Shown here piece by piece: positions 15,118 through 16,320 of a DNA stretch of 64,000 nt; position 1 is the stretch's first letter; each line of letters begins with the position of its first letter. A program made the translations under genes and the position numbers. The notes under the pieces were generated by a model. That model worked only from the letters and a program-made list of their open reading frames with translations, did no database searches and was not told the DNA's origin. This DNA is from Promethearchaeota archaeon. GTDB lineage: Archaea > Asgardarchaeota > Lokiarchaeia > Sigyniarchaeales > SOKP01. Location of the stretch: the NCBI GenBank assembly GCA_048938855.1, contig JBHLLT010000001.1, positions 288,124 through 352,123 of the forward strand. The letters run 5' to 3'.

Positions 15118-16320
15118 ATGGATATTGTTGAACTGTTATTAAGCATTTTAAGTTTAATTATTGGCTACCTTTTAGGAGCAATATTACCAGCGTTTTTCTT
15201 TGGAAAATTAAAAGGACTAGATATAAGAGAGGAAGGAGATAAGAATCCAGGAACTACAAACGCATTTAGAGTATTAGGACTCCCTTTTGCTATTCTAACA
15301 GCACTATACGATACCTTGAAAGGATTATTAGCAATGTTAATAGCGTACTGGTTCGGCGTTAATCTTATTTTTTGGCAAATTAGTGGACTAATGGTGATAA
15401 TCGGTCATGTCTTTCCATTTTATTTAAGATTTAGAGGTGGTCAGGGAAATGCGACTGCTACGGGGCTGCTTCTTTTTTATCTTCTTAATTATCTTTCCAG
15501 TAGTTTTAGTATATTTTATGTCTTGATATTTCTGCTGATACTTGTAATTATATTTACATATATATCTAGAGCTGGAAGTCTTTTGCCTGTTATTTTGTTT
15601 CCTGTACTTGGTTATTCAGTATTTATATTTTACCCTACAAGTGGTTTAAATCTCTTTTTTGTTTTAATCCTTGTCCATATTGGAATGGTGGGAATGTATA
15701 AAGTGATTACAGAAAAAAAACTGGTAATTAAAGATGAAGCGTTTTTGAAAAATTGGTGGAGAGTTGCCATAAGACCTGTAGCATTGCTTTTTCTTATTTT
15801 TGTATACCTTGATCGTGCTTTTGGTCTTTCTCTGATTGGAATTGTCTGCTTATGTTTTATTGCTCTTGACATCTTTCGTTTTCTTCATAAACGAACGAAT
15901 GTACTATTAACAGAAAAAACCCAAGTAATTTTCAGAAAGGGAGAAGAAAAGCGATTTTCATCAATGACGATTTTTATGATTTCTACATTTCTCATAGTGC
16001 TTTTTTTTGAGATAGAAATTGCTGTAATTGCTTTGGTTTTTCTTGTTTTTGGAGATATGTTTGGTAAAATATTTGGTTTAGCGTATGGGCGTCATAAAAT
16101 ATTTGAGAAAACACTTGAAGGGACTCTTGCACATATAGGAGCTGTAATCGCTACAGGATTTATACTTTTTACATCAATAGATATCAATATACTTATATTA
16201 ATTTCTGGTGGAATTGCTGCTCCCTTGATCGAGTTATTACCTATAGGAATTAATGATAATTTTACCGTACCGATAATTAGCGGAGCTGTTATGACTGCTG
16301 TTGATTTCTTTTTTGTATAA
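15118..16320 (+). CDS. plsY: PlsY-like glycerol-3-phosphate acyltransferase fused to a SEC59/Dgk1/phytol-kinase-type (CTP-dependent) domain
   Basis: DIREEGDKNPGTTNAFR, DTLKG, GHVFP..RFRGGQG; C-terminal GDMFGKIFGLAYGRHK, KTLEG, NDNFTVP. Confidence 0.8.
   Translation: MDIVELLLSILSLIIGYLLGAILPAFFFGKLKGLDIREEGDKNPGTTNAFRVLGLPFAILTALYDTLKGLLAMLIAYWFGVNLIFWQISGLMVIIGHVFPFYLRFRGGQGNATATGLLLFYLLNYLSSSFSIFYVLIFLLILVIIFTYISRAGSLLPVILFPVLGYSVFIFYPTSGLNLFFVLILVHIGMVGMYKVITEKKLVIKDEAFLKNWWRVAIRPVALLFLIFVYLDRAFGLSLIGIVCLCFIALDIFRFLHKRTNVLLTEKTQVIFRKGEEKRFSSMTIFMISTFLIVLFFEIEIAVIALVFLVFGDMFGKIFGLAYGRHKIFEKTLEGTLAHIGAVIATGFILFTSIDINILILISGGIAAPLIELLPIGINDNFTVPIISGAVMTAVDFFFV

Follow-up and report, generated by a model that had tools for sequence, protein, structure and literature searches.

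The protein analyzed here resembles three described systems. PlsY, known from the Aquifex aeolicus structures 5XJ5-5XJ9, the family PF02660 and the equivalog TIGR00023, holds acyl-phosphate in a hole to which His92, Ala40/Thr41 and the backbone of residues 104-107 contribute (PMC5700162). Its pocket for glycerol-3-phosphate (G3P) consists of Ser35, Arg45, Lys104, Asn180 and His177; replacing any one of them with alanine lowers activity to 1-7% (PMC5700162). Glycerol-1-phosphate (G1P) is also accepted (PMC13400652). The second system, FakA/FakB with PlsY in Firmicutes, carries free fatty acid through acyl-phosphate to acyl transfer; FakAB is soluble and ATP-using and has the Dak2 fold (PMC9136124, PMC10848957). 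The third comprises the CTP-dependent lipid kinases SEC59/DOLK, yeast Dgk1, VTE5/FolK and Plasmodium PolK (COG0170; PF01148 clan), with an RKxxH clamp and GD, KxxEG and DDN motifs. Characterized kinases of the SEC59/Dgk1 type act on alcohols, and we know of no member of the family that phosphorylates a carboxylate. In Plasmodium PolK, the clamp histidine has been modelled to orient the phosphates and contact the prenol hydroxyl (PMC10849223).

Genes matching PF02660 have been reported from Loki, Thor and Heimdall genomes and their function called unresolved (PMC6431249, PMC6737245, PMC9385802); the accessible sections of these accounts contain no mention of a fused kinase or a lost G3P site. 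The Asgard "bacterial PlsY" is also cited in the debate on the lipid divide, and its function has been called open (PMC9385802). Our literature search returned no paper on the fusion, the RxxxR kinase subfamily or the lost clamp described below; subscription journals, including Villanueva 2017, were outside its coverage.

The window (the whole stretch of 64,000 nucleotides that was analyzed) contains one open reading frame that joins a PlsY-like domain to a kinase domain in a single membrane protein. Its features are as follows, all on the forward strand.

15118..16320, +, ORF of 400 residues, PlsY-like domain plus SEC59/Dgk1/VTE5-type kinase domain (AlphaFold2 pLDDT 84.7, pTM 0.80)
15118..15711, +, PlsY-like domain, residues 1-198 (PF02660 at residues 15-185 by profile search, E 9e-36; TIGR00023, 110 bits; 5xj5, Z 15.2)
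15220..15270, +, motif 1, residues 35-51, with Gly45 and Asn48 kept, Ser35 replaced by Asp41, and Arg45 present as Arg51, which is not kept family-wide (alignment)
15406..15453, +, acyl-phosphate hole, with His97 (= His92) and the G107-G-Q-G-N-A112 loop, in which the G3P-binding Lys104 is replaced by Gln109 (alignment)
15691..15702, +, position of PlsY motif 3 (His177-x-x-Asn180), here Gly192-x-x-Lys195, motif absent (alignment)
15730..16317, +, CTP-transferase-clan domain of dolichol/phytol/DAG kinase type, residues 205-400 (fold and profile matches)
15760..15774, +, R215-x-x-x-R219, family-specific replacement of the Arg-Lys-x-x-His clamp (alignment of 71 members)
16054..16122, +, Asp313 (predicted catalytic), Gly320, Gly324 and K331-T-L-E-G335 (alignment, profile match)
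16252..16260, +, N379-D380-N381, [DN]DN metal/CTP motif (alignment)

An initial annotation had proposed this fusion, and domain matches in both halves confirm it. The fusion is a real, conserved two-domain lipid module, as the N-terminal half matches Aquifex PlsY in both sequence (5xj5, E 4e-17) and modelled structure (rmsd 3.6 over 178 aligned residues), and the C-terminal half matches CdsA (Z 9.3 within the full-length model) and a yeast Dgk1 homologue (98.9% probability over 187 columns with hhalign). An artefact of frame or assembly is ruled out by hundreds of full-length homologues, with identities of 58-93% among the best 120, and by a GC and GC3 that resemble those of the neighboring genes. 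The close homologues come from Promethearchaeota (Lokiarchaeia) MAGs, and the databases label the fusion proteins simply as glycerol-3-phosphate acyltransferase. On one side the gene adjoins what we take, from its own sequence, to be a TFB gene (13403-14335); on the other lie a hypothetical gene of 246 codons and, presumably and again judged by its own sequence, a prolyl-tRNA synthetase (ProRS) gene. A promoter scan gave results at chance level, and viral contigs yielded one partial PlsY-like match and nothing else.

The N-terminal domain shares with PlsY the seven-helix fold, the glycine-rich motifs 1 and 2, the equivalent of His92 and the backbone phosphate hole. The fusion protein is nevertheless outside PlsY in the strict sense. 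It scores below the TIGR00023 cut-off of 137.2 bits, lacks the G3P clamp and motif 3, is fused to a kinase, is accessory in distribution, and falls in the N-domain tree on a branch apart from canonical and stand-alone Asgard PlsY (support 99).

For the site residues, an alignment was made of 158 fusion rows (85 locus genes and 73 representatives at 50% identity, partly overlapping) and 23 canonical PlsY sequences, namely that of E. coli and 22 from fusion-carrying bacteria. All five G3P residues (Ser35, Arg45, Lys104, His177, Asn180) are present in 23/23 canonical sequences versus 0/158 fusion rows, most of which retain none to two. In the ORF, the five positions are occupied by Asp41, Arg51, Gln109, Gly192 and Lys195, so that four of the five are changed and the phosphate clamp (Ser35, Arg45, Lys104, Asn180) keeps one member of four, Arg51. 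The acyl-phosphate site is preserved: the fusion rows conserve the His92 equivalent and Gly102/103/105 at 99-100% and Asn42 at 97-100%, and the ORF has the complete hole, with His97, the 107-112 loop and Thr46-Thr47. The position of Thr41, whose hydroxyl binds the acyl carbonyl in PlsY, varies; threonine occurs there in 8-30% of fusions, the ORF among them with Thr47. Thr46 possibly substitutes for this hydroxyl in the fusions.

The earlier claim that motifs 1 and 2 are present thus stands for Gly45, Asn48, His97 and the glycine loop, and fails for Ser35 and Lys104. The reading of "VHIG" as a divergent motif 3 is not sustained. The histidine in question, His187, precedes the His177 position by five residues, lies inside the last helix and is not conserved, bacterial members mostly having tyrosine. 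An HxxN pattern is found within the last 60 residues of 7/158 fusions compared with 23/23 canonical sequences.

On the basis of the initial annotation, the kinase would make acyl-phosphate and the PlsY domain would acylate G3P or G1P, yielding ester or hybrid membrane phospholipids without PlsX. Arg51 is kept, Lys195 or basic residues of the linker might stand in for the clamp, and the acceptance of G1P by PlsY (PMC13400652) would also accommodate such a route. With four of the five G3P-binding residues changed in the ORF itself, we consider it unlikely, and the distribution described below argues further against it.

The PlsY-like domain could instead be a non-catalytic module for lipid binding or membrane anchoring, leaving the protein in effect a kinase. 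Variable membrane domains are common at the N-terminus of SEC59-type kinases, and truncated, kinase-only derivatives of the fusion occur in unchanged synteny. Conservation indicates, to the contrary, that the domain is not decaying, because 21 positions of the PlsY half are conserved at 90% or more family-wide, against 12 in the kinase half, and among Loki copies residues 10-120 of the PlsY half are more conserved (74%) than the kinase (68%). In addition, clamp-less PlsY persists as a separate gene beside a kinase. A non-catalytic role is thereby quite improbable.

The C-terminal half, modelled alone, reaches an AlphaFold2 pLDDT of 93.7. As the initial annotation recognized, it is a SEC59/Dgk1-type domain, homologous to these kinases over all eight helices, with the catalytic aspartate in GD313, Gly320, Gly324, the KxxEG motif (K331, E334, G335) and the DDN-type motif (D380-N381) all in place. 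Conserved residues of this half are Arg215, Asp251, Arg254, Glu276, Ser281, Asp313, Gly320, Lys331, Glu334, Glu372, Asp380 and Asn381; among 71 members, Arg215 is found in 68, Asp313 in 67 and Asp380 in 68. Judged by motif, Arg215 and Asp313 would correspond to Arg76 and Asp177 of Dgk1, whose mutants R76A and D177A are inactive. PF01148 is matched in 4/71 members. Matches among Atlas structures have TM scores of 0.82-0.89, and no Foldseek match to the kinase domain reached E 0.001.

The best PDB fold match of the domain is CdsA (4q2e, Z 10.1, rmsd 6.9 over 171 aligned residues), with another to 5guf (Z 7.5 over 98 residues), both of which denote likeness at the level of the clan only. This match, the shared clan and the presence of two arginines that could bind phosphate are what would be expected of a cytidylyltransferase similar to CdsA or CarS that converts a lipid phosphate to its CDP form. 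We regard such an activity as highly improbable: the domain goes with the kinase branch in both sequence and topology, an rmsd of 6.9 makes the CdsA match a loose one and no solved kinase of the family surfaced for comparison, and the host genome already has CarS.

What separates the domain from SEC59/DOLK, Dgk1, VTE5/FolK and PolK, with which it shares the first arginine of the clamp and the GD, KxxEG and DDN motifs, is the linked PlsY-like domain and the replacement of RKxxH by RxxxR. The reported reading RVAIR is correct and applies to the family as a whole, the histidine position being arginine in 67, lysine in 4 and histidine in none of the 71 members. A FastTree tree places R-type kinases on one side and His-type kinases on the other, with one change between them (support 85).

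In a second reading, the substrate of the kinase is a lipid alcohol (monoacylglycerol, diacylglycerol, prenol or archaeol). The PlsY-like domain would work either before the kinase, acylating free glycerol or monoacylglycerol with acyl-phosphate of other origin, or after it, by binding and processing the lipid phosphate. Every characterized relative is an alcohol kinase. The lost phosphate clamp would suit unphosphorylated glycerol as the acceptor, with later phosphorylation giving LPA or PA, and PlsX can supply acyl-phosphate in the bacterial carriers. The strict change from histidine to arginine points to a different substrate, and the host genome offers two further objections. It already has six His-type kinases, and neither PlsX nor FakAB was found in it. 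We therefore hold action on an alcohol as a tentative alternative, credible without being probable.

The host assembly measures 3.95 Mb and is 97% complete and 7% contaminated. A search of it for PlsX, Dak2, DegV and acetate/butyrate kinase found none of these; among host-family genomes, Dak2 was found in 2/68. The six other SEC59-family kinases (63088-64000 of the window; contigs C45 and C49) are all of the RKxxH type, and one lies within an archaeal ether-lipid cluster with genes for geranylgeranyl reductase, GGGP synthase and DGGGP synthase-like proteins. Most of the six have extra N-terminal membrane helices, and two are in tandem. The genome also encodes PlsC-like proteins, PcrB and CarS, and its matches to the G1PDH family PF13685 are all weak. 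One protein of 558 residues (C62:1658-3334) has two tandem PlsC-type acyltransferase domains.

Two other genes of the window had been offered as context for the fusion; both are present, but they say nothing specific about it. The other kinase-family gene, which starts at 63088, encodes 382 residues in the full genome and has an RKSFH motif, making it an ordinary His-type member, one of the six. The GlpA-like G3P dehydrogenase triad at 3702-6890 is catabolic in type, and the published reading of glpAD in Loki is G3P catabolism. As specific evidence, a link between triad and fusion was rejected, given that they occur in 67/71 and 31/71 family genomes respectively and lie 8 kb apart on opposite strands.

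We surveyed the distribution of the fusion and found it patchy in one Loki family and present also in bacteria. Among 301 Asgard genomes, the full fusion (rows at E < 1e-100) is present in 40/69 of the host's own family and 0/232 of the others. In a second sample of the family, PF02660 was matched in 31/71 genomes and in 17/36 of those of high quality, as fusions of about 400 residues or fragments in up to four tandem copies; no PlsY-type gene was found in the other 19/36 high-quality relatives. The fusion is the sole PlsY type in the family, and the ORF at 15118-16320 the sole PlsY-type gene in the host genome. The bacterial carriers include Aminicenantes, WOR-3, KSB1, Poribacteria and CPR. 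Many records labelled "Eubacteriales" share synteny with Aminicenantes loci, and such labels were not relied on. In 25 bacterial carrier genomes, canonical PlsY occurs in 22 and PlsX in 21. Because most of these carriers already hold both, the fusion is accessory; in the Loki family it is probably dispensable. In the N-domain tree, which is unrooted, the Loki copies form one group, placed with fusions from WOR-3 and other bacteria (support 96), which suggests transfer from bacteria into Lokiarchaeia.

For acylation of G3P or G1P, this distribution cuts both ways. Neither the host nor its family has another PlsY-type gene, the fusion is the only such match in two small CPR genomes, and the host has PlsC-like genes. 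Against this, about half of the related high-quality genomes yielded no PlsY-type gene, most bacterial carriers retain canonical PlsY and PlsX, the G3P residues are lost family-wide, and the occurrence of the GlpA triad does not follow that of the fusion. The proposed PlsX-free route to ester or hybrid lipids is accordingly not upheld. By sequence, the fusion is probably an accessory lipid-salvage enzyme, combining fatty-acid activation and transfer, rather than the enzyme that usually begins ester-lipid synthesis in bacteria.

The functional linkage of the two domains, also part of the original proposal, is supported by three arrangements: the forward fusion (about 75 clusters at 50% identity, with a shorter form of 330-350 residues that includes a Woesearchaeota member), a reversed kinase-PlsY fusion (P0223, one sequence so far), and an overlapping gene pair in Caldisericota, in which an R-type kinase is followed by a clamp-less PlsY. 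Linkage is not absolute. In one bacterial lineage, the catalytic half of PlsY has been lost with synteny unchanged (P0322 compared with L171), so the kinase can be of use by itself. Conversely, some clamp-less PlsY-like genes have no neighboring kinase. Most fusion neighborhoods are uninformative; the scattered exceptions fit fatty-acid salvage, with FakA and FakB adjoining the fusion at one locus (L068), DegV and lipid genes at another (L122), a patatin at a third (L123), and a patatin, a hydrolase and an Mla transporter beside an R-type kinase (L244).

We favor, at a probability of roughly 40%, an accessory two-step system of lipid salvage or tailoring, in which CTP-driven activation of a fatty acid is followed by acyl transfer to an acceptor other than G3P. 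We do so because the acyl-phosphate site is intact, the G3P site is lost, the clamp is more basic, linkage of the domains is persistent and no other source of acyl-phosphate was found in the archaeal carriers. With CTP as the phosphate donor, the C-terminal domain would phosphorylate an anionic lipid. A free fatty acid is the simplest candidate, and its carboxylate would fit the Arg...Arg clamp that stands in place of Arg-Lys-His. The resulting acyl-phosphate would be handed over to the PlsY-like domain and held in its phosphate hole, and the acyl chain moved to an uncharged or lipid hydroxyl or amine, for example that of glycerol, monoacylglycerol, an isoprenoid alcohol or a lipid head group. 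Ligases that proceed through acyl-phosphate intermediates run downhill, which is established chemistry, and the direction here would be the same. The proposed logic is that of FakAB with PlsY. The candidate differs in being an integral kinase of CTP type, and its acceptor is probably not G3P.

Several observations weigh against salvage by fatty-acid activation: the alcohol substrates of the characterized kinases, the variable Thr41 position, and the lineage in which the kinase has outlasted the catalytic half of PlsY (P0322). Furthermore, most bacterial carriers need no extra source of acyl-phosphate, as PlsX is present, and the same applies to the carrier with adjoining FakAB (L068). Of the idea that the kinase makes a phosphorylated donor, then, acyl-phosphate survives as the best single guess, without the PlsX-free acylation of G3P to which it had been attached.

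A broader conjecture, which we put forward as doubtful, is that the RxxxR subfamily as a whole is a membrane CTP-dependent fatty acid kinase and a third source of acyl-phosphate, after PlsX and FakAB. Paired with a clamp-less PlsY, it would form a fatty acid:alcohol ligase independent of CoA and ACP, by which Lokiarchaeia, DPANN archaea and CPR bacteria put scavenged fatty acids onto lipids of their own, possibly onto isoprenoid or ether lipids. If the kinase does activate fatty acids with CTP, acyl-phosphate would have a new source and the dolichol/phytol kinase family a new reaction. The fusion is a single protein to assay.

As far as sequences can distinguish them, Asgard "PlsY" comprises two different things: the clamp-less fusion in one Loki family and canonical stand-alone PlsY with Dak2/DegV in several others. 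Families f7, f16, f27 and f29 have stand-alone PlsY with the canonical RHxxN motif together with Dak2, and are candidates for a complete FakAB-PlsY route in archaea. Such families, with canonical PlsY and FakAB-like genes, provide a better test of ester-lipid synthesis. In f29, a PlsY-type gene, DegV (FakB-like) and a Dak2 protein of about 330 residues (FakA-like) are found in one run (L127:3778-6560, genome G263, and other f29 genomes).

Variants of the two domains were observed at other loci. Four diverged tandem copies of the fusion lie between TFB and the ProRS locus in one genome (L144:4184-11000, G199); they differ at former G3P-site residues, which suggests different acceptors. A kinase-only derivative with only the last PlsY helices left (L252:5001-5822) lies in the purH-thymidylate synthase-SHMT-GTP cyclohydrolase synteny that also surrounds a full fusion (L171). 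Aminicenantes-like bacteria and some Asgard have further stand-alone PlsY-like paralogues that lack motif 3 (L109-L113, L129, L130, L139), with no kinase beside those whose neighbors were listed.

The window also contains other genes of interest. The 246-residue protein next to the fusion (16425-17165), which has no Pfam or NCBIfam match, adjoins ProRS in 46 Loki loci. On the other side of TFB, a 576-residue alpha/beta hydrolase of the BD-FAE family with a multi-helix membrane N-terminus (11325-13055) is patchy in the family (49/71). This membrane esterase was considered as a partner, being near the fusion in 31 loci, yet its presence does not track that of the fusion. Finally, a FAD-linked oxidase with a 4Fe-4S domain is followed by a LarA-family nickel-dependent racemase (7958-11052), likely a pair for the utilization of 2-hydroxyacids.
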